A stretch of DNA of 58,026 nucleotides from an uncultured Nitrospiraceae bacterium (GTDB taxonomy: Bacteria; Nitrospirota; UBA9217): the NCBI GenBank assembly GCA_964364055.1, contig CAYILT010000002.1:1-58026 (forward strand), in the 5' to 3' direction. Position 1 is the stretch's first letter, and the number at the start of each line of letters is the position of its first letter. The notes under the pieces are model-generated. The model searched no databases. It was not told the origin of the DNA and saw only the letters and a program-made list of their open reading frames with translations. Positions 2,083 through 27,509 of this stretch are shown here, in pieces. A program made the translations under genes and the position numbers.

Positions 2083-2116
2083 AAATCCTCCTGTGGATAG
2101 TCATAGTCTCTATCAA

Positions 2117-5591: not shown

Positions 5592-5792
5592 ACTTCCCCC
5601 TCAAAGAAAAGAATATTCAAATATCGTGCAGGCTTATTGAGTGGACAAGATGATGCTGGCGTTACCAGGATCCGGGAGTGAGTAGTTAAGAGAGATCTAA
5701 ACAATTTAAGCAACTATTATATTAATATCAGCACAAATCATGCCATAAACAACTAATTGAATTAACGAAACATGAAAGAGTAATTGAATTAA

Positions 5793-7378: not shown

Positions 7379-8644
<1,266 letters not shown>

Positions 8645-8790
8645 TTATGGAATATGGTCTTCACAATATTCAGGGCAGCCACAAAGGGCTGCCCCTGCAA
8701 GTTCATCACGTGTCAATGCGGCCTTATCTTCGGTTCTTACTCCGCACTCGTTCGACAGGCTCACGATGGTGAGCAAAGTCGAACCATCCG

Positions 8791-8810
8791 AATTCCGCAA
8801 TCCGCAATTC
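8791..8810. repeat. Heptamer-type tract (AATCCGC-like), intergenic, abutting the metK stop
   Basis: AATTCCGCAATCCGCAATTC. Confidence 0.5.
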
Positions 8811-9968
<1,158 letters not shown>

Positions 9969-10295: not shown

Positions 10296-11696
10296 TTATT
10301 TTCCCTCACTCAGTGCAGCAGGGTCAAAGGCCCGAAGCATGGGCAGGAAACGCGCACTGCCCGCAGGCGGGTTCATGACCCGTACTTCAAAGTTCACGCT
10401 CCCCCGGGCCGATATCACCCCTTCCCGTATTGCGGTCATGTTCCGAATATCTTCTGCCTGCACGCCGCGCTTCGCCAATAGTTCCCGTTCCTTGTCCGTA
10501 TACAGCTGGATGCCGTTCATCATTTTCACCGTCGCCAGAACGATTTCCTTCGCGTCGCGCACCTCGGTCACCAGGTACCATCCCGTTTTCTGCTTATCCG
10601 ACGTGTTGTTGATCTTTCCGGTGATGACAAGATCTCCCCGTTCCGGATCCAGAAAAGCGACCGGATCCACGATCGAGAGGCCCTCCGGCGTGATCACTTG
10701 CCGGGCCGGTGCCGGTTGTGACTTCGGCTGCGGTTTCGACAGCGTCACCTGCCCGATCATTCCTCCCAGGAAGCCCATGTAGTAGAGCGCTGCGAGCCCC
10801 GCGACCAGTGTCAGGACGATCACCACGATGACGAGGGCACGCTTGCCCATAGACGACGCTTCGGCGCCTCGCGCTGCCGCGGCAGTCCTGGAATCAGCTT
10901 CGGCCTCTTTTTTCCCTGCTGTCTCCGGAGTCTTCGGCATCGCGAGGGCCGCCCCCAGGTCGATGTCCTCATCGGCGGGCGGCGCTGCCCCTGTACGCGC
11001 AGCGGACTTGTCAGGCGCGTTACGTTTCATCTGCGCCAGGAGATCAGGGGAGATCACCGGCCCCTTCGGCATCGCCGGCGCGGCTCCGAGATCGGGCGCC
11101 TGAACTGCCGGGGCCGGTTCGGCCTCCGGTGCCTGCTTTTCCGGTGACGGGGCCGAGAAGGCCGTTTTCCGCTTTGGCTCGGATATGAGGTCCACGGGGA
11201 AATCCAGCGCAGCCTCGGCTTCGGCCGCGGCTTCAGGCGAGATCTCGACCTCCGGTACTGCTTCCTTCTCTGGTTCTACATTGAAGCTGAAATCCTGGCC
11301 TCCAAAACCCTCTTCGGGATGAGCGGCTGCCGTGGCAGCCGCATGAGGCTCGCTGAAATCGAAATCACTCAGCGCTGCCGGGGGAATATCCTGTTCCCGC
11401 GGGGGCTGATATTCCCGCGCCTCGGGTTCGGGAGACGGTATTGGCTGCGTGGGGACAGGCTTGATCGACGGTCCAGGCGCGGCCGGGGGCGACGGCCTTG
11501 TTGCGGGTCCGGGCGGTTGTTGAGGGACCGGTTCCGTAGCTTCGTCCTCGCGGGCGAGCAGGTCCATCTCAAAGTCATCTTTGGTTATGGTGATGATCTC
11601 CGCGCACTTGGAGCATTTGAACCGAATGCCCTTGCCGGAGATCTTTTCATCGGCAACGCGGAAAAGCTTGCGGCAGCTTCCACAACGGATATCCAT
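10296..11696 (-). CDS. MJ0042-type zinc-ribbon protein with a Pro/Ala-rich linker, one TM helix and a DUF3426-like C-terminal domain
   Basis: Start moved to MDIRCGSCRKLFRVADEKISGKGIRFKCSKCAEIITI (CxxC...CxxC). Long low-complexity PAPE-rich region, then a TM helix. Confidence 0.6.
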   Translation of the reverse strand: MDIRCGSCRKLFRVADEKISGKGIRFKCSKCAEIITITKDDFEMDLLAREDEATEPVPQQPPGPATRPSPPAAPGPSIKPVPTQPIPSPEPEAREYQPPREQDIPPAALSDFDFSEPHAAATAAAHPEEGFGGQDFSFNVEPEKEAVPEVEISPEAAAEAEAALDFPVDLISEPKRKTAFSAPSPEKQAPEAEPAPAVQAPDLGAAPAMPKGPVISPDLLAQMKRNAPDKSAARTGAAPPADEDIDLGAALAMPKTPETAGKKEAEADSRTAAAARGAEASSMGKRALVIVVIVLTLVAGLAALYYMGFLGGMIGQVTLSKPQPKSQPAPARQVITPEGLSIVDPVAFLDPERGDLVITGKINNTSDKQKTGWYLVTEVRDAKEIVLATVKMMNGIQLYTDKERELLAKRGVQAEDIRNMTAIREGVISARGSVNFEVRVMNPPAGSARFLPMLRAFDPAALSEGK

Positions 11697-11811: not shown

Positions 11812-12012
11812 CTACTGCAACCCGTCTTTTTTTTCGTCCCCTTCCCCTTCCTCGTATATCGACTTTTTCTCCCCTGCGATCCGGTATTCTTCCGACGCCC
11901 ACTTGCCAAGGTCTATCAAACGGCAGCGGCCGGAGCAGAACGGCCTGAAAGGATTGTGCATCCAGGTTATTTCTTTCTTACATACCGGGCATGGTACTTT
12001 TCGATCTTCCAT
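11812..12012 (-). CDS. yacG: DNA gyrase inhibitor YacG (zinc finger)
   Basis: [38 protein letters not shown] matches the YacG signature. Confidence 0.85.
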
Positions 12013-14582: not shown

Positions 14583-14763
14583 GGGAATGTGAGGTCTCCT
14601 GGCTTAGGACGGTTCGACATTGCTCACCGCCGTGAGCACATCGAACGGCTTCCTACTCGCCTGCCTTCCCATCCTTCAAAGGACAGTGGCCAGCCCGGCT
14701 TTCGTTTCCATCACAGTTGCGTGGCAGCGGGGGACTTGCACCCCCTTCCGCTTCATCATTCCC
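14583..14763 (-). promoter_or_regulatory. Cobalamin riboswitch (leader of btuB-tonB)
   Basis: Minus-strand RNA contains GGUGCAAGUCCCCCGCUGCC, GCCACUG, GGGAAGG and the B12 box AGCCAGGAGACCUC. P1 closes as GGAAUG.../...CAUUCC. Confidence 0.85.
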
Positions 14764-14959: not shown

Positions 14960-16228
14960 TTACAAACATTTCTCCGTCAATATCTGATAGAGCAAGTGAT
15001 CGATCTCGTCGATCAGCTCCTTGAAGACGCCGCCGTGGCTTTTCGATCGCGAGAAGAGTTCGTCCCGTAGCGAGACAATTTTCGGGTCTTGGCATTTTTC
15101 ATAGGTAATATGTTCATTCTGCATGGCAAAGCGTTCCCGCAAAAGCAATTCTCCGGCCTTATCAGTAAAAGGCTGTGCAAGGTTCCGGATCCGCTGGATG
15201 CGACTGGCCACGTCCGGCAATGTTGACAAGCCGTCCCTTCTCTCAAGAAGAACCACGACCTCATTCACCATGACCGATAGCGTGCAATACTCCAGGCCCC
15301 GTACGCCCCGTCGCCACTGCAGGAGCATGGGATTTCGCCAAAACCAGAGAAAATTTCGAAGACCGAGTCCGATCAGCCCATCAGTTGCCCGTCGTATATC
15401 GACCATACCGTTGTCCAACACGGGAACGGAGACGCTTCCGCGCTGCGGCCGAGGCTCGATTGCGTCCGGGGAGTTCCAGGCGCAGCCGAAATATCCCCAG
15501 ATGTTCCCCAGCACAGCAGTCCCGTTCGCGTCTCCCGGTGTGTCAAAGTGTACGAGCGACAGCAGCACCTTGCCCTTGCCGTACATTCCCTCGATGACGG
15601 CAGGCTCGCCGATCAAGCGCTTTGGATCAAGATTGATCTGATAGACCGCCTCCAGATCCTTCCAGCTGCCGGTCGACGTTCCGTCCCCGACATTGACGTC
15701 GGATGTAAAGGCATCGGGGAGCGCTTCGCCGTAGGTCGCGAGCACCTTTACGCTTTCATCTACCACGAACTGGGACGGCCACCATGCATGGTAGATCGGT
15801 TCATCGATTCCCTTCCAGAGGTCATGGTCCTGCGAAATGAGACGGATCCGCCCGCTGAAGCTCGGCACCCGCTCCTTCGTCGGCCTTCGCGTGACCGGTA
15901 CGAGGCCGATACCATCCTGGGTGGCGAGTCCCGCGCCTCCGCAGAAACCGATATAGTTTCCCCCCTGATCGACGAACTGCCGGATCGCGTCTATCCCGTC
16001 TTTCCCCAGGGCCTTTGCCTTGTTCGATGCCCATCCGCCGGGAACGAAGAGTGTCCTGTAGTCCGCGAGAACACCGCTCCTGATGTCCTCCGAGCGGACC
16101 AGCTCAAAGGGAAGACCAGCCGCCCGAAGGGCCTTGCAGGCCATCACGCCCCACAGGAAGGACTCATCCCAGAGAAAAGCTGCCCTGTTGTTATACTCCG
16201 AACTCCGCACTCCGCACTCCGCACTCAC
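14960..16228 (-). CDS. BPL_N / class-I glutamine-amidotransferase-like domain protein, function unknown
   Basis: FVPGGWASNKAKALGKDGIDAIRQFVDQGGNYIGFCGGAGLA resembles the biotin-protein-ligase N-terminal (GATase-like) fold. GTG start overlaps the cbiGH stop. Confidence 0.5.
   Translation of the reverse strand: MSAECGVRSSEYNNRAAFLWDESFLWGVMACKALRAAGLPFELVRSEDIRSGVLADYRTLFVPGGWASNKAKALGKDGIDAIRQFVDQGGNYIGFCGGAGLATQDGIGLVPVTRRPTKERVPSFSGRIRLISQDHDLWKGIDEPIYHAWWPSQFVVDESVKVLATYGEALPDAFTSDVNVGDGTSTGSWKDLEAVYQINLDPKRLIGEPAVIEGMYGKGKVLLSLVHFDTPGDANGTAVLGNIWGYFGCAWNSPDAIEPRPQRGSVSVPVLDNGMVDIRRATDGLIGLGLRNFLWFWRNPMLLQWRRGVRGLEYCTLSVMVNEVVVLLERRDGLSTLPDVASRIQRIRNLAQPFTDKAGELLLRERFAMQNEHITYEKCQDPKIVSLRDELFSRSKSHGGVFKELIDEIDHLLYQILTEKCL
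16195..16226. repeat. Heptanucleotide tract (ACTCCGC), about 4.5 units
   Basis: ACTCCGA ACTCCGC ACTCCGC ACTCCGC ACTC. Spans the cbiGH stop and the start of the BPL_N-like gene (MSAECGVRS). Confidence 0.85.
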
Positions 16229-18093
16229 ACGTCATATCCTCTCGGTGTTATCAACAGGTTGTTCCATACAAATGTTTTCGAGTTGCCGATGATCACGGTC
16301 GTCTGCATATCAACGTCAGTGTCCTGCATGCTCGCAAGATCCGTTACGATGACCATCTCCTGCTCCCGCATCGCGCCCTTCACGATGCCAACGGCCGTTT
16401 TCACGTTCCGATGCTTCAGGATGATCTCCCGAGCCCGGTTGAGATGGCCAGCCCGGCCTTTGCTCCGGGGATTGTACAGGACGATGACGAAGTCCGCTGC
16501 CGCGGCCGCCTCAAGACGCTTCTCGATCATTTCCCAGGGCGTCAGGCGGTCCGACAGGCTGATGCAGGCAAAATCATGCATCAGAGGAGCTCCGAGCCGC
16601 GAGGCAGCGGCATTCAGCGCGGAAATGCCGGGGATGACCTCGACTTCGGGACAGAGCGGAGTGCGGAGTGCGGAGTGCGGAGTGCTTTGATTCTCCGACT
16701 CCCGACTCCTGACCCCTGACTCCTGATTTCTCAGCAATTCAAACACCAGCCCCGCCATGGCATAAACGCCGGGGTCGCCGCCGCTGATCACGGAAACGGT
16801 CTTTCCAGCCTGCGCCAGTTCCACTGCTTTCCGGCACCGGTCGACCTCCTGCGTCATACCGGTCGAGACGACATCCTTGTCCTTGAGAAGCTCTTTGATG
16901 AGATCGAGATAAGTACCGTAGCCCACAATGACATCAGACCTTTTGATTGCGTCCCTGGCAGCGGGAGTGATATGCTCCAGGCTCCCCGGCCCGGTGCCCA
17001 CGATATGGATTTTGCCTTTTTGCTGTAGTTTTTTTTCTCCTTCACTCCACACTCCGCACTCCGCACTCCGCACTGTTTTGAAAGCCGCCGCCACGGTCAC
17101 GTTTCCTTTCTTTTGCTTCTGCACCAGCAGGCTGTCCGCCCCTGCAGCAAGGAGCGCTGCCGGTTCCGCGACGCCGAATGCGCCTGTAGCCCTGAATACG
17201 ACATCGGATCTTTCAATCCCTTCCACGCCGTTCAGCTCGCCACTCCTGAACACGTGCAGCGGGAAGTCATATTTCCGGGCAAACGCCCTGAGTCCCGGCT
17301 CGCTGCCTTTGATATCGATCGTGGCGATACAGCCGACGGACAGGAACGACAGATTGCGGCTGTCGAGCGTGCTCTGCACCGCATCCTCGATCTCCTCCTG
17401 CGACGTGCCGCTGTTGCACCCGATGCCGACAACCAGATTTCTGGGCCTGAGATACAGCTGTCCCTTCACCCGGCAATCGCACAGATCAATGTTTTTTTTA
17501 TTAGTAATCAGGATGTCGGCATATTTCGGGTCAGCTGTCCTTAAAAACTCGTCGGGAAGTTTAATTTCTGACCCCTGCCCCCCGACCCCTGACCCCTGCT
17601 CTTCATACACCCGCAGCGCGCCGTTGTTCACGAACCGCGTTCCGATCAGCGGGAGCATTCCCCGGTCCTCGATGACCAGATCATGCTCCCGCGCCCAGAG
17701 ATCGAGCGCAGGGAGCCCGTTCACGTCCGACGCAGTGGTGATGACCGCCTCGCCGCCCAGGAATGCCGCGATCTTGCGCGTCAGTTCGTTCGCGCCGCCG
17801 AGGTGGCCCCCCGCAAGGCTTATTGCATGCTTCCCCGCCTCATCGAGCACGACGACCGCGGGATCGGTCCGCTTGTCCTTGAGCAGCGGCGCGATGGTCC
17901 GCACAACGATGCCTGAGGCCATGATGAACACCAGGGCCTCGCTCCTCCGCCACAGGGCTTCGACAACAGCCGGAGCGTATTTCGCGATCTCCGCGTCTGG
18001 TGACCAGGACTTCAGCCGCTCCGCCACCCTGAGACCATTATCGGTAATATAGATGATCGCAGTTCGCTTCACTCCGCACTCCGCACTCGCCAC
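16225..18093 (-). CDS. cbiGH: CbiG-CbiH fusion (cobalt-precorrin-5A hydrolase / cobalt-factor III C17-methyltransferase)
   Basis: N-terminal half is CbiG-like. C-terminal half starts KGKIHIVGTGPGSLEHITPAARDAIKRSDVIVGYGTYLDLI (tetrapyrrole methylase). Carries several repeat-encoded inserts. Confidence 0.85.
   Translation of the reverse strand: MASAECGVKRTAIIYITDNGLRVAERLKSWSPDAEIAKYAPAVVEALWRRSEALVFIMASGIVVRTIAPLLKDKRTDPAVVVLDEAGKHAISLAGGHLGGANELTRKIAAFLGGEAVITTASDVNGLPALDLWAREHDLVIEDRGMLPLIGTRFVNNGALRVYEEQGSGVGGQGSEIKLPDEFLRTADPKYADILITNKKNIDLCDCRVKGQLYLRPRNLVVGIGCNSGTSQEEIEDAVQSTLDSRNLSFLSVGCIATIDIKGSEPGLRAFARKYDFPLHVFRSGELNGVEGIERSDVVFRATGAFGVAEPAALLAAGADSLLVQKQKKGNVTVAAAFKTVRSAECGVWSEGEKKLQQKGKIHIVGTGPGSLEHITPAARDAIKRSDVIVGYGTYLDLIKELLKDKDVVSTGMTQEVDRCRKAVELAQAGKTVSVISGGDPGVYAMAGLVFELLRNQESGVRSRESENQSTPHSALRTPLCPEVEVIPGISALNAAASRLGAPLMHDFACISLSDRLTPWEMIEKRLEAAAAADFVIVLYNPRSKGRAGHLNRAREIILKHRNVKTAVGIVKGAMREQEMVIVTDLASMQDTDVDMQTTVIIGNSKTFVWNNLLITPRGYDV
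16656..16726. repeat. Heptanucleotide tracts: (GCGGAGT)x4, then CTCC[C/T]GA-type units
   Basis: Read directly. Encodes ESGVRSRESENQSTPHSALRTP inside CbiH. Confidence 0.85.
17042..17073. repeat. Heptanucleotide tract (CACTCCG), about 4.5 units
   Basis: Encodes RSAECGVWSEG in the CbiG-CbiH linker. Confidence 0.85.
17568..17599. repeat. Heptanucleotide tract (GACCCCT-type)
   Basis: CTGACCCCTGCCCCCCGACCCCTGACCCCTGC. Encodes QGSGVGGQGS. Confidence 0.8.
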
Positions 18094-18101
18094 TCCGCAC
18101 T
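18070..18101. repeat. Heptanucleotide tract (CACTCCG-type) at the cbiGH 5' end
   Basis: Encodes the N-terminus MASAECGV and extends into the cbiF-cbiGH spacer. Confidence 0.8.
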
Positions 18102-18105: not shown

Positions 18106-18864
18106 CTACTTCCGGTACTCATGTTTAAAATCCTTATGGTAAAGTTTTGACTCTTTTCCCAGGGATATCTCGGACGCCCGGAGTGATTCCCCCACGTAGA
18201 TCAGCGCCGTCTTCCTGATGCCTGCGTCCTTCGCCAGAGAAGCGATGTCCGTCAGCGCGCCCCTGATAACCTTCTGGTCCGGCCACGACGCCTTCTCGAT
18301 GATCACCACAGGCGTATCCGGTGGATAGCCTTGCAGCAATTCGTCCCGCACCTTCTCGATCATGCCGACGCTTAAAAAGATCACCATGGTCGCGCGGTGC
18401 GAAGCCAGCGAACCCAGCCGCTCGGACGCAGGGACCGGGGTCCTGCCCTCCATCCGGGTTAAGATGACGGTCTGGCTTATCTCGGGGATGGTCAGCTCCT
18501 GCCCGAGGATCGCGGCGCCAGCCATGGCCGACGACACGCCCGGGATGACCTCATACAAAATATTCAGCTCACGGAGCCGTTCGATCTGCTCCGATATGGC
18601 GCTGTAGAACGACGTGTCCCCGGTGTGGAGCCTCGCCACAGACCTCTTGTTCTCCACGGCCTTTTTCATGACCGCGATGATCTCGTCAAGGTCCATGTTC
18701 GCGGAATCGAAGAGCTCGGCCTTGATGCCCGTGAGGAGTGCGGGGTTCACCAGACTTCCCGCATAGATCACCACGTCAGCGGCATCGAGTATCCTTCTGC
18801 CTTTCACGGTGATGAGCTCCGGGTCGCCCGGGCCCGCGCCTACAAACGTTATCATTGCGTTCAT
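18106..18864 (-). CDS. cbiF: Cobalt-precorrin-4 C11-methyltransferase
   Basis: ITFVGAGPGDPELITVKGRRILDAADVVIYAGSLV; 252 aa. Confidence 0.9.
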   Translation of the reverse strand: MNAMITFVGAGPGDPELITVKGRRILDAADVVIYAGSLVNPALLTGIKAELFDSANMDLDEIIAVMKKAVENKRSVARLHTGDTSFYSAISEQIERLRELNILYEVIPGVSSAMAGAAILGQELTIPEISQTVILTRMEGRTPVPASERLGSLASHRATMVIFLSVGMIEKVRDELLQGYPPDTPVVIIEKASWPDQKVIRGALTDIASLAKDAGIRKTALIYVGESLRASEISLGKESKLYHKDFKHEYRK

Positions 18865-19646
18865 CGTTTCCTCACGATCATGAGGGAGAAATAATTCAAT
18901 TCCTCCTCTTTCACCTGACTAATGTCTCTGTACACCCGTTCATCGTCCATGCCTGCCCGCACCACATAGATCGCCTGTGCCGCACGGTTCATCCTGTTCA
19001 GCATATCCCTGACCGTAGTGAATACCTTGCTGACCTTCATAAGCACCACGGTATCGAACTTCTCCAGCGTTTCCTCGAGGCTGTCCAGGTAATTCGCCGG
19101 CAAAATGGCGATCCGTTCATTGCCCAGTCCAAGATACAACCCGGCCCGTGCAGCAGCCGCGTTTATGGAAGATATGCCGGGAACGATCTCAATAACAAGA
19201 GCGGGCCTGAGCTCAAGCAGCCTGTCGTAGAGATAGAAGAACGTGCTGTAGATGCCGGGATCGCCGATCGTGATAAAGGCCGCGTCACGCCCTTGTTCAA
19301 GCACGGGAACGATAGCATGAACAGCTTCATTCCATTTGGCATTCAGATCATCTGCCTGCAATGCTTCCCTCTCCCCTCGCGGGAGAGTGCCGGCCTGCCC
19401 CGTTTGAGGCGGAGCCTCTTTCGGGGGGTGAGGGGCGGTTTTCATCATCGGGAAGTGCAGTTCCACGATTTTTTTGCCATCGAGATCGACAGCCCCACGC
19501 ATGATCGACAACGCAAGGCTCGTCCCTTCTTCGCGGCCTTTCGGCACAAAAATACACTGCGTCTCCTTCAGGATTCTGACCGACTTCAGCGTCAGAAGTT
19601 CAGGATCACCCGGCCCGACGCCGATAACATACAATTTTCCGGTCAT
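18861..19646 (-). CDS. cbiL: Cobalt-factor II C20-methyltransferase
   Basis: MTGKLYVIGVGPGDPELLTLKSVRILKETQCIFVP. Contains a repeat-encoded insert. Confidence 0.85.
   Translation of the reverse strand: MTGKLYVIGVGPGDPELLTLKSVRILKETQCIFVPKGREEGTSLALSIMRGAVDLDGKKIVELHFPMMKTAPHPPKEAPPQTGQAGTLPRGEREALQADDLNAKWNEAVHAIVPVLEQGRDAAFITIGDPGIYSTFFYLYDRLLELRPALVIEIVPGISSINAAAARAGLYLGLGNERIAILPANYLDSLEETLEKFDTVVLMKVSKVFTTVRDMLNRMNRAAQAIYVVRAGMDDERVYRDISQVKEEELNYFSLMIVRKR
19367..19438. repeat. G/C-rich palindromic element inside cbiL
   Basis: CCCTCTCCCCTCGCGGGAGAG...GGGGGGTGAGGGGCGG. Encodes KTAPHPPKEAPPQTGQAGTLPRGERE. Confidence 0.7.
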
Positions 19647-20116
19647 GTTCCTCCTCGTCGCGACCTCTTCGCGGCCCGCAAAAATAAATCTTCCCGTAGA
19701 TTATCGTTCTTGCCCGCGTGACGGACGACCATCTTCACAAGCTCGCCTTTTTCGAGACTGTCCAGGTATTTCTCCACGTCCTTCATGGTTATCTCGGCGC
19801 TCTTCGCCTTTCGGACCTTGCCGCCTTTTTCCTTTGCGCCTTTGCTGAGCCAGGTGAGACCGACAGCCACGCAATGCTTGCAGAAATCTCCGTCATCGCC
19901 CACCGGACAGGTGCAGGAATAATCCAGTTCACCGTCGTCGTCCCATAATCTGACTTTGTAGGTACGCGTTCCTTCCACCTTTGCCGTGATTTCACCCTCA
20001 CGCTCGGTCAACGGACCGACCACATCCATTTCGTAATATTCTTCACCGCGTTCGTATGACCTTGGGTCGGCCAGATTGCGGAGTGTAGTTCGAGTCAGTA
20101 TGTTTTTCATGATCAT
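19643..20116 (-). CDS. Short SWIM zinc-finger protein
   Basis: Start moved to MIMKNILTR. CTCPVGDDGDFCKHCVAVGL is a CxCx(n)CxH SWIM motif. Stop overlaps the cbiL start (ATGA). Confidence 0.7.
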   Translation of the reverse strand: MIMKNILTRTTLRNLADPRSYERGEEYYEMDVVGPLTEREGEITAKVEGTRTYKVRLWDDDGELDYSCTCPVGDDGDFCKHCVAVGLTWLSKGAKEKGGKVRKAKSAEITMKDVEKYLDSLEKGELVKMVVRHAGKNDNLREDLFLRAAKRSRRGGT

Positions 20117-20148
20117 AATGTACCCTTCGATTTGGTGCGGCGCGTTCG

Positions 20149-20195
20149 CCCCGTTAGAGGCCGCGATCGCTTGCCGCGAACTGCCTCTAACGGGG
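20149..20195. repeat. Perfect 13-bp inverted repeat (REP-like hairpin) between vapC and the SWIM gene
   Basis: CCCCGTTAGAGGC - 21 nt - GCCTCTAACGGGG. The loop contains GCGATCGC. Confidence 0.6.
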
Positions 20196-20210
20196 TTCGG
20201 GGAATGCGTT

Positions 20211-20609
20211 CTACAATTTTTTATCCCAGATGGTCTGAACCTTGTACTTCCTGATGAACGCGTCTGAAGTGATAATCGGAATCCCCTCCATGACTGCCTG
20301 GGCAATGAGGATTCTGTCAAAGGGGTCCCGGTGAAAAGAAGGCAGATGAAATACATGGAGAGCGTGGCTCGCCTCGACAGGCAACGTCTGGACGGCATTC
20401 AGCGCCATTTGTTCGACGATGAACGCATCCGGATGCGCGGGTAGCATAATCTTGCCGAGCCCCGCCTTGATCGCGATCTCCCAGCAACTCGCGGCGCTCA
20501 GAAACAATTCATTATCGTCGTCCGCGATTATCTCGCGCACACGCCGGGGCAGTTGCGGCGAGTCCATAATCCACCAGATAAATACGTGCGTATCGAGCAG
20601 CGCCCTCAT
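20211..20609 (-). CDS. vapC: PIN-domain toxin VapC
   Basis: MRALLDTHVFIWW...SAASCWEIAIK...; 132 aa; 4-bp overlap with the antitoxin gene. Confidence 0.85.
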   Translation of the reverse strand: MRALLDTHVFIWWIMDSPQLPRRVREIIADDDNELFLSAASCWEIAIKAGLGKIMLPAHPDAFIVEQMALNAVQTLPVEASHALHVFHLPSFHRDPFDRILIAQAVMEGIPIITSDAFIRKYKVQTIWDKKL

Positions 20610-20839
20610 TTCTCGAACTCATCGGCAAGCAACGACGGCAACGGTTCCGTAAAACCCTTTTTCAGAGTAATCCGTCCCTTCGCGCTCCCCGGCTCCCTTT
20701 TTTGCGTCTTCCCGATCAGCGGTAATAGACGTGCCACCGGTTTTCCGGCCTTGGCGATAACGATCTCTTCTCCGCCGGCCACCCTGCTCAAAAGTCTCGA
20801 AAAATGAGTCTTCGCCTCATGCACATTTACCATCGTCAT
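20606..20839 (-). CDS. Phd/YefM-type antitoxin
   Basis: MTMVNVHEAKTHFSRLLSRVAGGEEIVIAKAGKPVARLLP; 77 aa. Confidence 0.8.
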   Translation of the reverse strand: MTMVNVHEAKTHFSRLLSRVAGGEEIVIAKAGKPVARLLPLIGKTQKREPGSAKGRITLKKGFTEPLPSLLADEFEK

Positions 20840-20862
20840 AGCTATCGAGCCTCCTGAACATC

Positions 20863-20891
20863 ATATTAGACTAAGACATGGACTAAGTCAA
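20863..20891 (-). promoter_or_regulatory. Sigma-70-like promoter with a candidate operator for the toxin-antitoxin pair
   Basis: Minus strand reads TTGACT - 17 nt - TAATAT. The spacer holds the direct repeat TTAGTC..TTAGTC. Confidence 0.5.
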
Positions 20892-20959
20892 GGTAGAACA
20901 GCGCCTCATCGGGCATGCCTTCCATCTGTACCCGGAAATTTAAACCAACCCGCCATTCC

Positions 20960-21416
20960 TTAATCGCCCTGCCCGTGCGGCAGCATGACAAGTTCCTCCG
21001 CATCCGAGGTGTCCGCGAATATCGACTCGTTGATAATCCTCTCGGCAATAGCATCGAGATGCTTGGTAAGCTCTTTTTCGAGTTCCTGGTATTCAGGCCA
21101 CAGTGTCCTGTTCACAAAGCCCTTTGAAACCCGTGCCATGACGGTGGTATGCCGCTGGCGATAATAGCGATAGGGCTTAATGTCGTAACGCCGCAGTAAA
21201 GCAGTGAACAGCCGTCGGGACCATTGATTATTCATGGTGAACGTGTATTCAATCGGCGGATCAGCTTCGCCGAATTGGCGAATCTTGTCCTTGATTCGCT
21301 GGCGCGCATAATCAGCGGCGGAACGTTCGCCCTCCGTACCCGCCGCCGGCGTGCAAGGCTTCGATCAATTTTAGTTTTTCGATCAGTTTGTTTACGTCAT
21401 AATTTACTTCATTCAT
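20960..21416 (-). pseudogene. Frameshifted hypothetical gene
   Basis: ATG at 21416 reads MNEVNYDVNKLIEKLKLIEALHAGGGYGGRTFRR*. The adjacent frame is open from 21364 (..AAGTEGERSAAADYARQRIKDKIRQFGEADPPIEYTFT) and runs straight into the 91-aa ORF 20960..21235. The frames switch inside a GCCGGCGGCGGG run. Confidence 0.45.
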
Positions 21417-21499
21417 GGTGAGGTCCTTTTGGTACCGCGACACGCTAAAAACGAAACATATGTCATCGGTTCGGTCCGTTCGGGGAACGGACCCTACCT

Positions 21500-24400
21500 T
21501 TATATTTTCGATTTGTTGTCTGCCGGCTCCACCAGCAACTGCAGCAGCTCGTCCGGCGATATCCTGCCGCTCATGTCGCTGCCTTCGAGGAGGCTGTCCG
21601 CCAGGTCCCTTTTGTGCTGGTGCAGGTCAACGATCTTTTCTTCGATGGTCCCCTTTGTTATCAGGCGGTAAATGGTAACCGGGCGTTCCTGACCGATCCG
21701 GTAAGCGCGGTCCGACGCCTGGTCCTCAACGGCCGGGTTCCACCAGGGGTCCATGTGCATAACATAGTCCGCGGCGGTGAGGTTCAGCCCCAAACCGCCC
21801 GCCTTGAGACTGATAAGAAACACATCACCGTCGCCTGCCTGAAAGGCGTCCACGCTTCGCTTCCGTTCCCGGGGCGGCGTGCTTCCGTCGATATACTGGT
21901 AGGGTATCTTTTTCTCTTCCAGGAACTCCCGCATGATCTCGAGATGGCCCACGAACTGGCTGAAGATGAGCGCCTTATGCTTATTATCGAGAAGTTCCTC
22001 CAAAGTCTCCACAAAAAGCTCGAACTTGCTGCTTTTGGTCTTTGTATCGGGAACAACAAGCCGGGGATTGCAGCAAAGCCTTCGCAGTCTCATGATCTCC
22101 GCGAGGATCTGGATGCTCTTCCGCCCCATATTCCCCTCCACCCGGGCGATCCTGTCGAGAGACTGCCGTCTCATGGCCTCATACAGCGCCGTCTCTTCTT
22201 CCCCAAGTTCGACATGGAGGATGATCTCCGTTTTTTGCGGCAATTCAGTCAGCACCTGGGTTTTGAGCCTGCGCAGAATAAAGGGCTGGACCAGCCTTTT
22301 CAGCCTTGTGCGCGCATGATGGTCATTGCCCCGTTCTATTGGATTGGCGAACCTTCTGTTGAAAGCATCAAGAGATCCGAGCAGTCCCGGATTTATGAAC
22401 CGGAACAGGTTCCACAACTCGTCAAGATGATTTTCCACGGGAGTGCCCGTGGTAATGATCTTGAACCGGCCCTGCAGCTTCATGGCCGCCTGCGAACGCA
22501 TGGTAGCGGCGTTTTTGATCGCCTGGGCCTCATCGAGCACGATCGTCTCCCATTCAACGGAAGCCAGAAGTTCCTCTTCCTGCTGGAGCAGGCCATAACT
22601 GCAAACCATGAGATCGAAAGGCCGGAGCGAAGCCGCGGTTTCTTTGCGGTCACCGGCCCCGAATTGGAAAACATTCAAGGTGGGGGCGAAACGCTTTGCC
22701 TCCTCCATCCAGTTCATGCAAACCGAAGTAGGGGCCACTACGAACGCGGGACCGTTCGCCGCGCGGCTGATGATGAGCGCCAAAGCCTGGATCGTTTTGC
22801 CGAGCCCCATATCGTCGGCCAGACAAGCGCCCACTCCCCAGTGGGCCAGACGGGCAAGCCATGCATAACCCTCCGTCTGATAGTCCCGCAATTCGGCCTG
22901 AAGTGTGGAAGGGACCACGGGCTGCAGCGCCTGCGCGCTCTGAATGCGGGTCATCTGTTCTTTCCATTGACTGTCCGTTTCCAGGTCCGTGCCGGCGGTC
23001 AGCTCCTCGATTGCGGGGGCCGCAAGGGGATGAAAACGCACGCCCTTGGCATGGCGTTCCGAGAGCGAAGCCAGGTCATCAAGACGTTTCCTGAACTCCC
23101 TGGTCAGCGCGAGAAACTCGCCGTTCCCCAATGGAAGAAAACGGCCCGGCGTCGCGTCCAGAAGTTCCAGGAGCTGCCGGAGTTCCATTACCTTGTCTTC
23201 GTTCAACCGTATCTCGCCGTTCAGACTGAACCAGTCGTTCTCCCGTTTAATGGCCATACGAAAACCGTCGAACGATATCTGGCGCGTGATTTTGAACTTC
23301 GCCCCCTCGGGCCAGTCCACGCACACCTTATCACCCAGGCCCTGAAGCTCCGTAAGCAGCTCCAGACAGTCCTCGGGCTCGTCAATATGCCATTCGCCAT
23401 CGAGGTCCTCATACTGGTCCAGGACCGTACAAGCCTGAAGCGTTTCCTCGACCATTCTTCGTTCCATCTCCAGCGAACGTTTTGTCTGGAGCCGCTCGTT
23501 GTCAATTTCAGCAATGACGGTCTCGCCCCCCTTGCCGGGCGAATAGTATGGACCTTTGCCGGAAAAGGGCCTGACCAGCGCCTGGATCTTGAGTCCTTCC
23601 TGAAACGGCATCATCACGACATGCGGGGTCGGATCGGACGGCGCTTCCTTGATATTTTCCATGCTGCCGCCGATTTCCGACTGAATATGGACAAGAGAGG
23701 ATATCGCGGAAATTGCTTCGAGCACCTTCTCCGACGCCGACAAGGGAACGCGAACACCCTCGCCGATAATGCGCGAAAGGGCCTTATGCTTTTCCGTCAG
23801 CTCCACCAGCCGGAAGCGGGTGGGGGTTTCCCTGATCACGGTTACCTTCGCATCCGGTGAGCACACGGGATACAGCGTTATGAAGATATTTTTTTTATTT
23901 CGGGAAACAAAAACCTCGGGCTCGCCCTTTACGAGTTCCACCCTGACACCCGGCGCGTCTTTCAGGAAGACCAGCGGATGCCCCGCCAGTTCAGTCAAAG
24001 CCGCAAGGCCGAATTCGTTATAATGCCCCCAATAGGGATTGTCCTGCGCTAACCGGGCGGCAAGCCTCTTGTCCTGTTCAGTAAGATAAGATGATTTTTC
24101 CGAGTAGCGGTAAAGATCGTACATCGCAAGGGCCCTGCCTTTTGACCAGCCGCCCTTGGCGCTCATTTTCTGCTCCAGCGGATGCACCCGGCAGGTCCCC
24201 TTTTCGTTATATTCGAACAGCCATACCAGCCTTTTCTCGTTCACGACCGGGGACACAATGGCGCCTATGTTTTTCAAAGCGGCAAGAGAGCGCTCCCACG
24301 GCTCTTCCGGGACGATCAGGTCAAGAACACTCCGCATACCCGAGGCCTGACGAAACGCCGCGGCTTCAGCGCCGTATTCCTCGTTTTTTCCGTCCAGCCG

Positions 24401-25657
24401 GAAAAGAAGCTCTGACAGTTCCGCGGCGATGAGATGAAAGCCGTGGCTCTTTGCCTGGTTCAGGAACGCCTTCAGCCCTTCCGCCGCGCTTCGTATGGTT
24501 GACGGAGAAAGAGACAGCGAAATAAATACTCTGAAAAAATGCTTCATGGTGCAATGCTCGTCTAAAGGAAGTTCGGGCATCATGGGCTGGAGCTCGCCGC
24601 CGCGTTCAACAACCCAGTAGTGTTTCAGGTAGGAGAGAATATCATGGATATCGCCGTATTCCTCCCGCCGTTCCGCGTATCCGATATACTCCAGCGCCTG
24701 TTTTGCCCGGACAGGGTCCTTGCCCGCAAGCAGCAGGAGGGGGAAATAGACCCCGTAAACGCCCTTGAAATAAACCTTGCGTTTGTTCATTTCCTTCTTC
24801 AATTTCACGAGCGCCGACTCATACAGCGTTATCGCCTTGTCGTCTTCCGCGCGCAGGAAGGACAGCCACGCCCGCACTGCCTCCGCACCGGCTAAAGCAC
24901 CCGCTCCGTGCAGAAGCTGTTCAGCCTCTTCGACGTTTCCCTGAAAAATGAGGTAATGGGCAAGACCATAACTCAGATACTCGTTGCCGGACCCGCTTTT
25001 GCTCAGAAGAGCCCGGGCAAACAATACCGCGTCCCGCGCGGGCTCGAGCTTGAGCGTGGAGTGAATGAATATCCGCACGAGCGCGTCGGCCTGCACTTCC
25101 GGCGGCAGGGAAGCTGCCGTTTCCGCGTCAAAAGGGTTATTGTAGATGGTGAGAAACGGATGTTTCTCCTGAAAAGCGTCAGGGTAAAAACGCTCGATTT
25201 CCGACAGTATCTTGACAAGCTGGTCCCTGCCCTCGCCAAGATATGCGGCGATGCGCAGTTCCTTCATTTTTTTATCGAAGCTGGTGTCGAACGAGTAATG
25301 CTCGCGAGAGGACCTTACAACGCGCGCGAGCTCGCCGAAATGGTTCTTACGGACCGCATCGCGGGTCGCGTACTCGACAAGGAGGTCGGAACAACGATAA
25401 CCACCGAGCCGCTCATGATGCGCCAACAATCCCCGGGCGGACAATGCGTTCAGAATGGCGTCAAGGGCCTTGGGCCTGACGAGCCAACCCGGAACTACCG
25501 ACGCGGGGCATTCACGCAGCGCGGCAAGCAGTTTGCCTCTATCGACGAACTGATAAAATACCGACGCTGTTTGAATAACCGCCTTTTCATCCTGCGAGGC
25601 CGCTTCATAAGCCCGGATCAAATCGGCCCGCAAATGTTCTTTTTCGTCAAAGGTCAT
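21500..25657 (-). CDS. SNF2-family helicase/ATPase with an approximately 900-aa uncharacterised N-terminal region
   Basis: C-terminal third has LADDMGLGKT (motif I), DEAQAIKN (DExx box) and Helicase_C motifs (QASDRAYRIGQ). Confidence 0.85.
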   Translation of the reverse strand: MTFDEKEHLRADLIRAYEAASQDEKAVIQTASVFYQFVDRGKLLAALRECPASVVPGWLVRPKALDAILNALSARGLLAHHERLGGYRCSDLLVEYATRDAVRKNHFGELARVVRSSREHYSFDTSFDKKMKELRIAAYLGEGRDQLVKILSEIERFYPDAFQEKHPFLTIYNNPFDAETAASLPPEVQADALVRIFIHSTLKLEPARDAVLFARALLSKSGSGNEYLSYGLAHYLIFQGNVEEAEQLLHGAGALAGAEAVRAWLSFLRAEDDKAITLYESALVKLKKEMNKRKVYFKGVYGVYFPLLLLAGKDPVRAKQALEYIGYAERREEYGDIHDILSYLKHYWVVERGGELQPMMPELPLDEHCTMKHFFRVFISLSLSPSTIRSAAEGLKAFLNQAKSHGFHLIAAELSELLFRLDGKNEEYGAEAAAFRQASGMRSVLDLIVPEEPWERSLAALKNIGAIVSPVVNEKRLVWLFEYNEKGTCRVHPLEQKMSAKGGWSKGRALAMYDLYRYSEKSSYLTEQDKRLAARLAQDNPYWGHYNEFGLAALTELAGHPLVFLKDAPGVRVELVKGEPEVFVSRNKKNIFITLYPVCSPDAKVTVIRETPTRFRLVELTEKHKALSRIIGEGVRVPLSASEKVLEAISAISSLVHIQSEIGGSMENIKEAPSDPTPHVVMMPFQEGLKIQALVRPFSGKGPYYSPGKGGETVIAEIDNERLQTKRSLEMERRMVEETLQACTVLDQYEDLDGEWHIDEPEDCLELLTELQGLGDKVCVDWPEGAKFKITRQISFDGFRMAIKRENDWFSLNGEIRLNEDKVMELRQLLELLDATPGRFLPLGNGEFLALTREFRKRLDDLASLSERHAKGVRFHPLAAPAIEELTAGTDLETDSQWKEQMTRIQSAQALQPVVPSTLQAELRDYQTEGYAWLARLAHWGVGACLADDMGLGKTIQALALIISRAANGPAFVVAPTSVCMNWMEEAKRFAPTLNVFQFGAGDRKETAASLRPFDLMVCSYGLLQQEEELLASVEWETIVLDEAQAIKNAATMRSQAAMKLQGRFKIITTGTPVENHLDELWNLFRFINPGLLGSLDAFNRRFANPIERGNDHHARTRLKRLVQPFILRRLKTQVLTELPQKTEIILHVELGEEETALYEAMRRQSLDRIARVEGNMGRKSIQILAEIMRLRRLCCNPRLVVPDTKTKSSKFELFVETLEELLDNKHKALIFSQFVGHLEIMREFLEEKKIPYQYIDGSTPPRERKRSVDAFQAGDGDVFLISLKAGGLGLNLTAADYVMHMDPWWNPAVEDQASDRAYRIGQERPVTIYRLITKGTIEEKIVDLHQHKRDLADSLLEGSDMSGRISPDELLQLLVEPADNKSKI

Positions 25658-25738
25658 ATTGTTCCATCAGGATAAATATTGTATGCACATGAGAATATAA
25701 CCGTAGGGACCGGTCCCCGAATGGTCAGAACCTTATCA

Positions 25739-26281
25739 TCAGGTTCGATAAAAGGGCTCATTAAACATTGTAGCCTTCCTGTCACGCTCGGAGATGCAGC
25801 GCGTAGGACAACTGACGCACTTGCCTGTCAGGGAATCCCATGCCTTCGCGGCCGTCGTCAGCAGGCGGTTTACCAACTCGTCGCCGATATGCGGGAAGTA
25901 CGCCTCGATGCTTCTGTAACCGAACTCAATGCTCCCGATTTTACCCGATACACGCGCCAGAACTTGCTCGCTCATCTGTTTGGCATGCTGAATGCAGAAT
26001 ACCGCAATGGCCCGGCCGTCAACGCCTTTGCTACCCAGTCGTGCATGGAGCTTCTTGTCCCGATGAATATGAGCCTCATACTCGAGCGCATATTCGAAGA
26101 GAAACCAATTGAGCTTCGTCTTTTCCGTTTCCGAATTATGGAAAGCGTCTGGGGAAATAAAACGTTCTCTGGTCACTATATTTTTCCGATATAACATGAT
26201 CAGCCGCCTCGTCGGGTCCGGAATTTCATTGAACGCGCTGTGCTTCACCGGTCCGCAGAGGCCATAAGGAGGCGTCAACAA
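25739..26281 (-). CDS. Hypothetical protein (start uncertain; alternative ATG at 26197)
   Basis: Open frame with a Cys-rich C-terminus, GKCVSCPTRCISERD. No family recognised. Confidence 0.4.
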   Translation of the reverse strand: MLTPPYGLCGPVKHSAFNEIPDPTRRLIMLYRKNIVTRERFISPDAFHNSETEKTKLNWFLFEYALEYEAHIHRDKKLHARLGSKGVDGRAIAVFCIQHAKQMSEQVLARVSGKIGSIEFGYRSIEAYFPHIGDELVNRLLTTAAKAWDSLTGKCVSCPTRCISERDRKATMFNEPFYRT

Positions 26282-26326
26282 ATTAAGGTGTCATCCTGGA
26301 GCCTCTAGTAAAAGCATTCAGGGTGG

Positions 26327-26400
26327 TTCGACAAGCTCACCACGAACGGCAAATGGCCAATGCGCGCGATTCCATATCCGTTCGTCCTGAGCTTGTCGAA
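26327..26400. repeat. REP-like imperfect palindrome
   Basis: TTCGACAAGCTCACCACGAACGG ... CCGTTCGTCCTGAGCTTGTCGAA: 23-nt arms with 2 mismatches. Confidence 0.6.
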
Positions 26401-26459
26401 GGACAGTTGCTACCTTTATTTATTGACGCTGCCTAACACGTGAATCATCTGCGCACCCG

Positions 26460-26873
26460 CTAATCCAGATAACATGCGCCGATCTCGAACGCCTGTTCGG
26501 GCGTCCCGAACCATTCGCCGCCATGGTAACAGCAGGGTTCATACCGTTCATGGCTATAGGTGTAAAACGCGACGCTCCAGCTGTCTGCGCTGAAATGCCG
26601 CAGCCGGACGAGGTGCGTAGGCGTGTTTCGCAGGCGTTCGATAAACTCCTGCCGGGTTTCAGCGCCAATGGAACGAAAGCGTTTCGGCGCAAAAGGCTCT
26701 TTGTAAGCGTCGATATAGCAGAGAGCGCCCTTGAACCTTACGTCAATCCTGGTGAACTTCCCGGCGTAATGCTTTTCCGCATATGCAGAAATTCGTTTCC
26801 TCGTTGCTTCCTGCGTGGCAGGCGGTATCTTCACCCCACCCGCGTGGGGATTGAACATCCACACCTTGCTCAT
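26460..26873 (-). CDS. Hypothetical protein
   Basis: Probable start MSKVWMFNPHAGGVKIP. No family recognised. Confidence 0.4.
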   Translation of the reverse strand: MSKVWMFNPHAGGVKIPPATQEATRKRISAYAEKHYAGKFTRIDVRFKGALCYIDAYKEPFAPKRFRSIGAETRQEFIERLRNTPTHLVRLRHFSADSWSVAFYTYSHERYEPCCYHGGEWFGTPEQAFEIGACYLD

Positions 26874-26934
26874 AAGCTTGCCTCCTCCTCGCCTCATGCG
26901 CGTTGCCGCCGGTGCGCAAACAGGACCCGTTCGT

Positions 26935-27345: not shown

Positions 27346-27423
27346 TACGCTTTCCCTTTCATACTTTTATGCATCCGCTAAAACTCCCGCGGACTTTTGG
27401 GCACATTGTCCCATTTATCCGTC

Positions 27424-27509
27424 ATTCCGGCACGGTTCAAGCCGGAATCCAGTGACTTTGATTTTTCATCAGGTTGATAAAATGGATTCCCGATTAAAGC
27501 GTTCGGGAA
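27424..27509. repeat. Pair of REP-like hairpins
   Basis: ATTCCGGC-9 nt-GCCGGAAT (27424..27449) and ATTCCCG-11 nt-CGGGAAT (27486..27509). Confidence 0.55.

Follow-up and report, generated by a model that had tools for sequence, protein, structure and literature searches.

Heptanucleotide tracts in the cobalamin genes of Nitrospirota: in-frame repeats that are stable in length and receive small mobile cores

Introduction

What are tandem heptanucleotide repeats doing inside a biosynthetic gene? The question is raised by a 58,026-nt stretch of DNA from an uncultured Nitrospiraceae bacterium (Nitrospirota, UBA9217; contig CAYILT010000002.1 of assembly GCA_964364055.1), called the window throughout, in which short tracts of 7-nt units lie within and at both ends of cbiGH, a fusion gene of cobalamin biosynthesis. 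Because 7 is coprime to 3, such a tract encodes one cyclic heptapeptide whichever frame is read, and the frame is kept only when the number of units changes by three. The initial annotation of this DNA had therefore offered the tracts either as slippage-prone contingency sites or as scars or targets of a composite element. Comparison with related genomes shows that the tracts are inherited vertically and stable in length, lends no support to a role as contingency loci that switch the frame, and identifies the tracts as preferred integration sites of small mobile cores. We think it likely that they represent selfish or neutral repeat cassettes of which selection has kept those that are tolerated in frame, in strand and in the protein structure.

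Results

Period-7 tracts in the window

The window was searched with Tandem Repeats Finder (TRF), and single periods were counted a second time with an in-house match/mismatch scorer. TRF returned 22 period-7 arrays, cbiGH being one host gene among many. The scorer found 13 strong period-7 tracts and no strong tract of period 4, 5, 6 or 8–12 in the window; in 200 first-order Markov simulations of the window the mean was 0.01 tracts and the maximum one per run. Nearly all arrays lie in long minus-strand open reading frames (ORFs) of the cobalamin cluster. Besides cbiGH, tract-bearing genes are those for CbiET, CbiD, a CbiO-like ATPase, CbiX/C, CbiA, CobQ and a BtuF-like binding protein, and a further tract spans the cbiM/cbiN junction (Table 1). 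The units (GCGGAGT, GCGGATT, TCGGAGT, TCAGGAG, CAGGGGT, CAGAAGT) are linked as a network in which neighbours are a single step apart, and many enzymes of this one genome have unit types in common.

In and around cbiGH, TRF recovered the five sites of the initial annotation at the positions given there and resolved them into six tracts. Their copy numbers range from 4.3 to 5.0, so that the three to five units noted earlier describe real tracts with too wide a range. Translation confirmed the predicted cyclic peptides, AECGVRS for GCGGAGT and TPHSALR for ACTCCGC. Freedom from stop codons, which had also been noted, applies to the strand that is read and not to the plus (non-coding) strand, where TGA is present in CTCCTGA and ACCCCTG. 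Moreover, 76% of random heptamers of the window's base composition are stop-free on a given strand (58.5% on both), and the stop-freeness of the tracts thus reflects survivorship and carries no signal.

Length stability and concerted unit change in relatives

Loci of other genomes that bear cob genes or cbiGH are designated L001–L090. Five loci of relatives, L081–L085 (P0002, P0003, P0004, P0006 and P0007), are 71–81% identical to the window at the nucleotide level and form with it a six-species set. When cbiGH of all six is aligned, the five tract sites prove orthologous, and none of them shows a length difference of ±7 nt in any of the six species. The window, L081 and L082 have cbiF/cbiGH junction tracts of one length; that of L084 is shorter by 9 nt, and in L083 a core element replaces part of the tract. 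Four species agree in the length and the internal irregularity of the CbiG-loop tract, which has deletions of 15 nt in L085 and 27 nt in L081. All six species have the linker tract at equal length, the L081 copy carrying a hairpin element of ~70 nt at its centre, and all six have the double tract of CbiH. The junction tract between cbiGH and the next ORF is the same in length and register everywhere; in L082 a core element is inserted in it.

Unit sequences change in concert. At the last-named junction three species have GTGCGGA units, and the other three (L083–L085) have ATTCAAA. In the linker it is GTGCGGA in the window and L084, GTTCGGA in L081 and L085, and GTCAGGA in L082, and the forward arm of the CbiH double tract consists of TCAGGAG in the window, L081 and L085 and of TGCGGAA in L083. 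The cbiM/cbiN junction tract has another unit type in L083 and differs also between strains of the L084 species, and one L084 tract contains three homogenised units.

An alignment of 8 kb of the operon from four species contained 20 indel blocks of at least 9 nt, nearly all of which are tracts or elements within tracts. The length changes of tracts are deletions of whole tracts or in-frame deletions of three units. The latter comprise two exact 21-nt deletions private to L081, one in the N-terminal tract of CbiO and one in a CbiD tract; the outgroup L084 keeps both segments, and these are the sole unit-wise length changes found. The earlier statement that three units preserve the frame is thus correct as arithmetic and is borne out by evolution in part, in the form of rare events.

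Within a species, stability was assessed with the sister species of L084, whose locus was compared with L088, L089 and L090 from other samples (97–99.9% identical). Across these four strains no change in unit number was found in ~13 tracts. What does differ is, first, the 27-nt core B (see below) at the CbiL N-terminus, which L084 has and the other three lack, their tract being intact, and which adds a net 27 nt and replaces one 7-nt unit, second, an extra copy of core B in tandem in CbiX/C, and third, the N-terminal tract of CbiN, which is AAATGCA x4.6 in one allele and a degenerate GAAGTCA tract in the other. The CbiN alleles lie within a segment dense in single-nucleotide polymorphisms (SNPs), which indicates import by recombination. 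Short SNP-dense segments with alternative tract alleles were also seen between L086 and L087 (alignment columns ~1900–2420) and between L084 and L088 (~2000–3500 and ~8500–9000). Since near-identical strains differ by such tract-bearing segments, homologous recombination shuffles tract variants in the cob operon. The concerted change of units is thus in part due to allelic recombination between strains, as documented in two strain pairs; another part may reflect conversion within tracts or between ectopic copies.

Several apparent changes dissolved on inspection. A switch of loop type between P0140 and P0094, considered as conversion in situ, was traced to an imported SNP-dense segment of ~500 nt outside which the two are 99% identical, that is, to allelic recombination. 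Differences of 7 amino acids within 90% protein clusters, considered at first as possible three-unit polymorphism, proved to be alternative start calls within an N-terminal tract. Split CbiD genes in L088 and L090 are not biological; runs of N at the core/tract site (~5430–5690 in both loci) are assembly gaps which split the gene call. Slippage at tracts was likewise dismissed as the cause of the broken genes in L083, where the gene-breaking frameshifts are scattered 1-nt indels, none at a tract, and therefore most likely assembly errors. The annotation of these metagenome-assembled genomes suffers both from assembly gaps that repeats induce and from long-read errors.

These data bear directly on the proposal that the tracts are phase-variation loci in which slippage by single units toggles cbiGH and its neighbours. 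The arithmetic is in its favour, because the change of one unit shifts the frame, and it has been suggested that polymerase slips readily at heptanucleotide repeats (Mrazek 2007, relayed in PMC4692102 and PMC4679880). Concerted unit change between species implies some turnover of units, and genes for B12 uptake adjoin, so that loss of synthesis might be tolerated. Against it stand the absence of any ±7-nt difference at five sites in six species and in ~13 tracts of four strains, the presence of only 4–5 units per tract, and a length distribution that is peaked and not geometric (see below). The frameshifts in L083 are 1-nt indels of an assembly type away from the tracts, and length differences in the 90% clusters are start-codon calls or imported recombination segments. 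Furthermore, tracts occur in nearly every gene of a housekeeping pathway, and the segments that they encode are predicted to be disordered spacers. We therefore regard contingency as the most improbable of the explanations considered, and the corresponding suggestion of the initial annotation is not supported.

Nested mobile cores

The tracts are preferred integration sites of three small mobile cores (27, 27 and ~70 nt), which enter them without target duplication. Core A (CCTTCGACCCGAGCTCAGGCCGAGGGT) is 27 nt long. The window has four copies of it without a mismatch, all of which sit mid-tract inside an ORF, and none of 85 other loci has one. When the copy in CbiET (30469–30495) is compared with the intact tract of L081, it appears as an exact 27-nt insertion without target duplication. 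Its identical copies and its absence from 85 related loci make core A look like a recently active mini-element that encodes no protein. Core B (CCCCCGATnGAGnCATTCGAGGGCAGG), also of 27 nt, occurs in L082, L083 and L084, with half-tracts flanking eight of nine copies, and is polymorphic as an insertion in an otherwise intact tract within the L084 species. Core C (GTAGACATGACCCTCACCCC...CTTTTTCA) is a good hairpin which starts with GTAG; its second site is the cbiGH linker tract of L081 (about 11049–11118). Thus the part of the initial annotation that saw in the tracts targets of a composite element is supported. None of the cores or tracts matched Rfam at gathering thresholds, the only matches being cobalamin riboswitches.

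Two further inserts were seen in the window. A 45-nt CCCCCC/GGGGGG palindrome in CbiET (30084–30128, minus strand; DNA fold z = -3.9) encodes PPFDKGGQGGI, and at its site L083 and L084 have an intact tract. In the N-terminal region of CbiD, an 84-nt in-frame hairpin insert (31760–31843, minus strand) encodes SPSPQPSPARGEGV...EGEERGEGA and takes a place at which a heptamer tract is found in relatives. Inside their cob clusters, L082 (7804–8301) and L084 (about 7759–8273) have a gene for a RAYT-like Y1 (HUH) transposase flanked by inverted GTAG-tagged REP hairpins, an arrangement called a REPtron; the L084 copy appears frameshifted. This RAYT was not linked to the tracts, as the GTAG-tagged REP that flanks it is a different sequence.

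Could the tracts themselves be what cores have left behind on entering and leaving again and again, be it as footprints or as target duplications, as the word scars in the initial annotation implied? Cores do sit almost always at tract centres, with 2–3 units on either side, as such an origin would predict. However, empty sites display the full, intact tract before insertion and no target duplication, which indicates that the tracts came first and that the cores target them. The tracts are also far older, since all six species share them; core A, by contrast, occurs in this genome alone, in four identical copies. Finally, three unrelated cores use the same tracts, and tract units resemble none of the core termini. 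An origin as scars is accordingly very improbable.

Cassettes and two-armed modules

Tracts 17568–17599 in cbiGH and 39680–39711 in CbiA have an identical irregular order of units at two unlinked sites, and we take them to be copies of one cassette and not independent microsatellites. In L005, a two-armed module of ~90 nt occupies three sites; the copies in the CbiH loop and at the C-terminal junction are nearly identical, and that in the linker is a third version. It is built from a forward arm of GTAACAA/GTAACGA units, a spacer with GAGTCGGGAGTC, and a reverse arm of ACTCGTC x4.4. The same spacer motif is found in the CbiH module of the window, whose forward (16693–16726) and reverse (16656–16685) arms are inverted and form a hairpin. 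On the mRNA strand, positions 16650–16732 fold with -36.2 kcal/mol (z = -3.9), a value obtained with the module alone; the wider segment 16640–16745 folds weakly (z = -1.7). The L005 modules are strong hairpins (z -7.4 to -9.2), one of them being weak in the sense orientation (z = -2.5).

For two of these L005 segments (11312–11402 and 11822–11918) the antisense strand folds far better, with -43.6 and -50.4 kcal/mol (z about -9), because the differences between the arms are compatible with G.U pairing on that strand only; the CbiH module of the window has the opposite, weaker strand preference. Single tracts fold no better than shuffled sequences, and the four single tracts of cbiGH have no partner arm. 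Judged by their sequences, several single tracts may be modules from which one arm was lost.

The duplication of whole 90-nt two-armed modules, together with the irregular unit order repeated at unlinked sites, is difficult to reconcile with the tracts being ordinary microsatellites that grew in place by slippage, without dispersal, and owe their fixed length to selection on loop size. Long heptanucleotide simple sequence repeats (SSRs) are over-represented in many bacteria (Mrazek 2007, according to the accounts in PMC4692102 and PMC4679880), three-unit deletions do occur, and the L084 tract with three homogenised units would suit such growth. Yet junction tracts share the length peak, growth from 1.6 to 4.6 units within an ORF would require two out-of-frame intermediates, and slippage does not account for pairs of inverted arms. 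Growth in place is distinctly improbable.

Positions of the tracts in CbiGH

Despite its tracts, cbiGH is an intact ORF of 622 amino acids in which all three Pfam domains are present. It is preceded by a gene for a CbiF-like methylase (18106–18864) and followed by a conserved ORF (14960–16228) with a weak BPL_N match. The closest of 4581 CbiGH homologues come from metagenome-assembled genomes (MAGs) of Nitrospirota, are 79–85% identical, and include one labelled class UBA9217. The tract at 17568–17599 encodes QGSGVGGQGS (residues 166–176) in the loop between CbiG_N and CbiG_C, and that at 17043–17074 encodes VRSAECGVWSE (residues 340–351) in the CbiG–CbiH fusion linker. The two arms at 16656–16685, encoding TPHSALRTP, and 16693–16726 make up a module in the inter-subdomain loop of CbiH (residues 456–480). 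The initial annotation had placed tracts correctly at the N-terminus, in the linker, in CbiH and at the junction, and had left the CbiG_N/CbiG_C loop unnamed.

In an AlphaFold2 model built on an alignment of 33 sequences (mean pLDDT 73.5), segments with pLDDT <50 are residues 1–7, 168–174, 342–357 and 462–478, and these are overlapped by the tract-encoded residues 1–8, 166–176, 340–351 and 456–480. Further low-confidence segments lie outside the tracts (95–101, 118–126 and 495–506), so that the match is one of coincident position and no proof of disorder. The CbiH tract segment lies opposite a gap in the solved CbiH/CobJ chain 3nut_A, relative to which it is an insertion, and aligns to a long loop of different sequence in 2zvb_A. 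At the same four places, orthologous CbiGH proteins have other heptad-cyclic peptides (RSQESGV, RSQKSEV, SAECGMRN, NADCGLR, KVRGWED, QGSGV) or nothing. Orthologues without inserts, a comparison proposed in the initial annotation, therefore exist. According to the model and the alignments, the tracts occupy permissive, indel-variable positions: termini, an inter-domain loop, a fusion linker and an inter-subdomain loop.

Tracts at gene junctions

Tract 18070–18101 bridges the cbiF stop and the cbiGH start, and tract 16195–16226 the cbiGH stop (16225–16227) and the start of the next ORF. On the sense strand of the former, GTG recurs every 7 nt and rotates through the three frames; it is in frame at 18093 and 18072, and each of these two is preceded at ~6 nt by GGAG. 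Starts of orthologues line up with the last GTG of the tract (M-K/R-K/R-T-A-I...), P0002 begins there, and gene callers differ only in their choice of an in-frame start within this N-terminal tract. Given a Shine-Dalgarno (SD)-like GGAG followed ~6 nt on by GTG in any frame, most of the N-terminal tract of cbiGH is probably an intergenic ribosome-binding spacer with a start site rather than translated sequence. A tract of the GCGGAGT type could, by its sequence, supply an SD element and a start codon whatever the frame. The same may apply to 16195–16226, as the sole in-frame start codons ahead of the conserved AFLWDE motif of the following ORF lie inside that tract.

Distribution across lineages and tract length

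A scan of 80 cbiGH loci, with one genome per species, found period-7 tracts to be common in only some loci of Nitrospirota/Thermodesulfovibrionia (up to 15 per 22 kb) and in one Planktothrix locus. In ~50 loci of Desulfobulbales, Clostridia, Actinobacteria and others there are practically none. In the Planktothrix locus (L032) the arrays are intergenic, contain stop codons and reach 121 nt, whereas those of Nitrospirota lie in long ORFs. The pooled length histogram of 19 Nitrospirota loci (371 kb) has its main peak at 29–34 nt (mode 31–33), a minor peak at 17–19 nt and a steep fall beyond 34 nt; control loci (932 kb) have almost no tract >21 nt. Such a peaked spectrum differs from the geometric shape expected of free slippage. 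The peak holds for junction tracts too, and within genes tracts of both orientations occur.

Neighbourhood of the tracts in the window

In the window, 20 of the 22 arrays lie within 19.2 kb of cbi/cob genes (in the span 14960–45831), and one of the remaining two is in the riboswitch-controlled gene for a BtuF-like protein. Six cobalamin riboswitch aptamers (Rfam RF00174, 65–79 bits), all on the minus strand, were found at 14594–14749, 35238–35430, 36301–36502, 47477–47660, 47720–47907 and 55173–55361, those at 47477–47907 being a tandem pair. Downstream of them are cbiM, a ThiC-like and a BtuF-like gene, and the genes for an outer-membrane protein and for a btuB-like receptor. The tandem pair is followed, at 46058–52373 on the minus strand, by the ThiC-like radical SAM gene, two more radical SAM/B12-binding genes and a methyltransferase–DUF2284 fusion. 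This region has no heptamer tracts and is presumably an operon for an anaerobic benzimidazole (bza-type) lower ligand.

An insertion of ~10 kb (19643–29350), which is also free of heptamer tracts, splits the cob cluster between cbiL and cbiET. Its cargo includes an ORF with a SWIM zinc finger and a 1385-aa SNF2-family helicase, and degenerate GTAG-tagged REP copies (GGACCGTTCGGGGAACGGTCC) lie in it at 21473, 25707 and 29198. Two membrane-protein genes (PAP2; VTT + PAP2) stand between cbiX/C and cbiA (37588–39522, minus strand), a place where L081 and L083 lack them. Among the few plus-strand genes of the window is an ORF for a transposase of the rve family (integrase core) at 56259–57149.

Table 1. 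Position of cbiGH, of heptanucleotide tracts and of nested cores in the window
Feature	Position	Strand	Plus-strand unit	Sense unit or peptide	Basis or remark
cbiGH fusion (cobalt-precorrin-5A hydrolase / precorrin-3B C17-methyltransferase)	16225–18093	minus			Pfam CbiG_N, CbiG_C, TP_methylase
Tract, cbiGH/next-ORF junction	16195–16226	minus-strand genes	ACTCCGC x4.6	GTGCGGA	TRF
Tract, CbiH reverse arm	16656–16685	minus-strand gene	GCGGAGT x4.3, perfect	ACTCCGC	TRF
Tract, CbiH forward arm	16693–16726	minus-strand gene	CTCCTGA x5.0	TCAGGAG	TRF
Tract, fusion linker	17043–17074	minus-strand gene	CACTCCG x4.6	GTGCGGA	TRF
Tract, CbiG loop	17568–17598 (to 17599)	minus-strand gene	CTGACCC x4.4	CAGGGGT type, irregular unit order	TRF
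Tract, cbiF/cbiGH junction	18070–18101	minus-strand genes	CACTCCG x4.6	GCGGAGT x4.6	TRF
In-frame tract in CbiET	29925–29956	minus		RQGPGARVQGPGE	TRF and ORF position
In-frame tract in CbiD	31355–31385	minus		AATCCGC x4.4	L081 exactly 21 nt shorter here
In-frame tract, CbiO-like ATPase N-terminus	33284–33310	minus		QKPEVRSQK	L081 exactly 21 nt shorter here
Tract, cbiM stop/cbiN start junction	34422–34453	minus		GCGGATT x4.6, perfect	TRF
In-frame tract near CbiA C-terminus	39684–39717	minus		GQGSGVGGQGN	Paralogous copy of the 17568 cassette
Core A, copy 1, tract centre in CbiET	30469–30495	plus			
Core A, copy 2, tract in CbiA	40504–40530	minus			
Core A, copy 3, tract in CobQ	43418–43444	minus			
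Core A, copy 4, tract in CobQ	43884–43910	minus			
Core C, 70-nt hairpin element, heptamer tract in CobQ	43224–43293	plus			

Discussion

The picture which we favour is that of a cassette of ~4–4.7 tandem heptanucleotides (27–33 nt) which would belong to a lineage-specific, dispersed family and would often be paired with an inverted partner arm to give a palindromic module of ~80–90 nt. Such cassettes may have entered the cobalamin genes in an ancestor of these Nitrospirota. To survive in coding DNA they would have to add a length that is a multiple of three, to be stop-free on the strand that is read, and to come to rest where ~10 extra disordered residues are tolerated.

Several observations weigh against cassettes that are purely neutral or selfish. 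Neither the narrow length distribution nor the near-perfect periodicity, which persists at orthologous sites although synonymous sites are saturated, is explained by such a model. The alignments contain no clean birth of a tract, and insertion of a tract was itself not observed. No Y1 transposase gene is present in the 58-kb window, nor was an enzyme found to which mobility of cassettes or cores could be assigned. Cores A and B on their own fold weakly (z about 0), and we call them mobile because of the identity of their copies and their empty sites, not because of structure. The protein cluster of the window has a single member, and within-species stability was judged from the sister species.

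A further such point is the concentration of tracts in cobalamin genes. When cob DNA was marked by tblastn with the 16 cob proteins of the window in 20 Nitrospirota loci (L001–L025, L043, L081–L085), cob DNA (156 kb) held 90 tracts and the flanks (201 kb) held 8, which gives 0.58 versus 0.04 per kb or a 14-fold difference. The binomial p is about 8e-24; sites are orthologous and species not independent, and the contrast of each locus with its own flanks remains. Contributions to this bias may come from tolerance of the enzymes, from local spread within the operon, from its exchange between lineages, or from a function.

It is tempting to ask whether the tracts are functional, selected elements of the cobalamin pathway, be it as junction modules that combine an SD element with a start codon, as mRNA hairpins, or as heptad linkers or tags on B12 enzymes. 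The 14-fold enrichment over 20 loci is compatible with this idea, as are the occupation of the same sites across deep divergence with periodicity kept, the GGAG and GTG offered in every frame at junctions, the significant hairpins and the common unit types shared by many enzymes of a genome. On the other hand, close relatives have lost tracts by clean deletion and retained the gene, units and peptides vary freely between species, and both orientations occur. Mobile cores interrupt the tracts, which map to low-confidence loops of the predicted structure and not to conserved structure, some tracts lie in unrelated genes such as that for LeuRS in L018, and the cross-species counts concern orthologous sites and are thus not independent. 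A selected role in the pathway is, on balance, unlikely.

A related possibility is active maintenance, in which cassettes of ~32 nt are kept in cobalamin operons by templated rewriting or conversion and/or serve the pathway, where they may act as frame-independent SD/start modules, as hairpins of the operon mRNA, or as disordered heptad tags that gather B12 enzymes. It is suggested by the 14-fold enrichment, the fixed length, the periodicity beyond synonymous saturation and the concerted switching of units, and nevertheless appears rather improbable to us. Binding of a CsrA-type protein to GGA and formation of G-quadruplexes were dropped as explanations, since many unit families have neither GGA nor runs of G and both orientations occur.

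The tracts lengthen many enzymes of one pathway by ~10 residues yet leave them intact, and so provide a natural map of insertion tolerance in B12-synthesis enzymes. With a 7-nt unit, a DNA repeat has a simple route to encoding one peptide whatever the frame. Few elements for which insertion polymorphism can be documented are as small as the nested 27-nt cores, and their defined target opens the movement of protein-less mini-elements to direct tests. Inconsistent calls of start codons and gaps in the assembly of these MAGs are explained by the tracts, which matters for annotation. It is the concentration in cobalamin operons that may open new ground.

Comparison with known systems

In 1990, Mazel and colleagues reportedly described short tandemly repeated repetitive (STRR) heptanucleotides in cyanobacteria. 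Like these, the Nitrospirota tracts are tandem heptanucleotides, dispersed in many copies, lineage-specific, and represented by several unit families per genome. They differ in being intragenic or at junctions, 29–34 nt long and often arranged as inverted pairs, whereas the tracts of L032 are intergenic, contain stops and extend to 121 nt. Their host is a member of the Nitrospirota and not a cyanobacterium, and their units (GCGGAGT, GCGGATT, TCAGGAG, CAGGGGT) are not the canonical STRR ones. Heptanucleotide repeats are also described for Calothrix (PMC4692102).

Lineage-specific heptamer arrays are known as well from marine Beggiatoaceae (TAACTGA; PMC4679880) and from Xanthomonas and Nostoc (GGGAATC; PMC4692102). 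Those arrays have 2–6 units, are mainly intergenic and often lie just 5' of start codons; the few intragenic copies are at the ends of proteins, and a role in translation has been suggested (PMC4679880, PMC4692102). TAACTGA has stops in all frames in one orientation (PMC4679880). By contrast, the Nitrospirota tracts lie mainly within genes and contain no stop codon on the read strand.

Palindromic repeats that lie in frame within genes are exemplified by the Rickettsia palindromic elements (RPE) and by intragenic REPs (PMC3733652). Common features are insertion in frame at permissive positions, an added peptide in a gene that remains functional, and copies at unrelated sites. Here, however, the arms of the modules consist of tandem heptamers which give one cyclic heptapeptide in any frame, the modules are shorter, and they are concentrated in one pathway. 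Palindromicity is a property of the double tract at 16650–16732 (z = -3.9) and of the L005 modules (z -7 to -9), whereas the four single cbiGH tracts do not fold.

The cores bring to mind SDR4–6 of Nostoc punctiforme, for which Elhai and colleagues are said to have reported, in 2008 (Genome Res 18:1484, a reference also given in PMC3116915), mobile non-coding elements of 21–27 nt nested in other small repeats. Cores A and B resemble them in being 27 nt long, non-coding, placed inside heptamer tracts and insertion-polymorphic with an empty site, core A being present in four identical copies. They are unrelated in sequence, belong to another phylum and fold weakly.

HUH/Y1 elements such as IS200/IS605 insert without target duplication, as do the cores, and GTAG is found at the start of core C. 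A Y1 gene and GTAG-tagged REP hairpins are present in the cob cluster of L082 and L084. The tracts depart from REP/RAYT systems in that, like cores A and B, they are without the GTAG tag and in that single tracts are not hairpins; no Y1 gene is present in the 58-kb window. Classical GTAG REPs do occur and differ in sequence from the tracts.

SSR contingency loci of host-adapted pathogens are typically long arrays in surface, host-interaction or restriction-modification genes. They share with the tracts coding tandem repeats whose unit length is not a multiple of three; here the arrays are short (4–5 units), no variation in unit number was found, and the genes are those of corrin biosynthesis.

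In the literature we found no description of heptanucleotide or heptamer repeats in Nitrospirota or Thermodesulfovibrio. Taken together, the tracts are best described as in-frame repeat cassettes akin to STRR/SDR and RPE. Combined in them are palindromic modules of fixed size with heptamer arms, a mainly intragenic, in-frame location, old age and conserved position together with units that change in concert, targeting by 27-nt cores and concentration in B12 genes.

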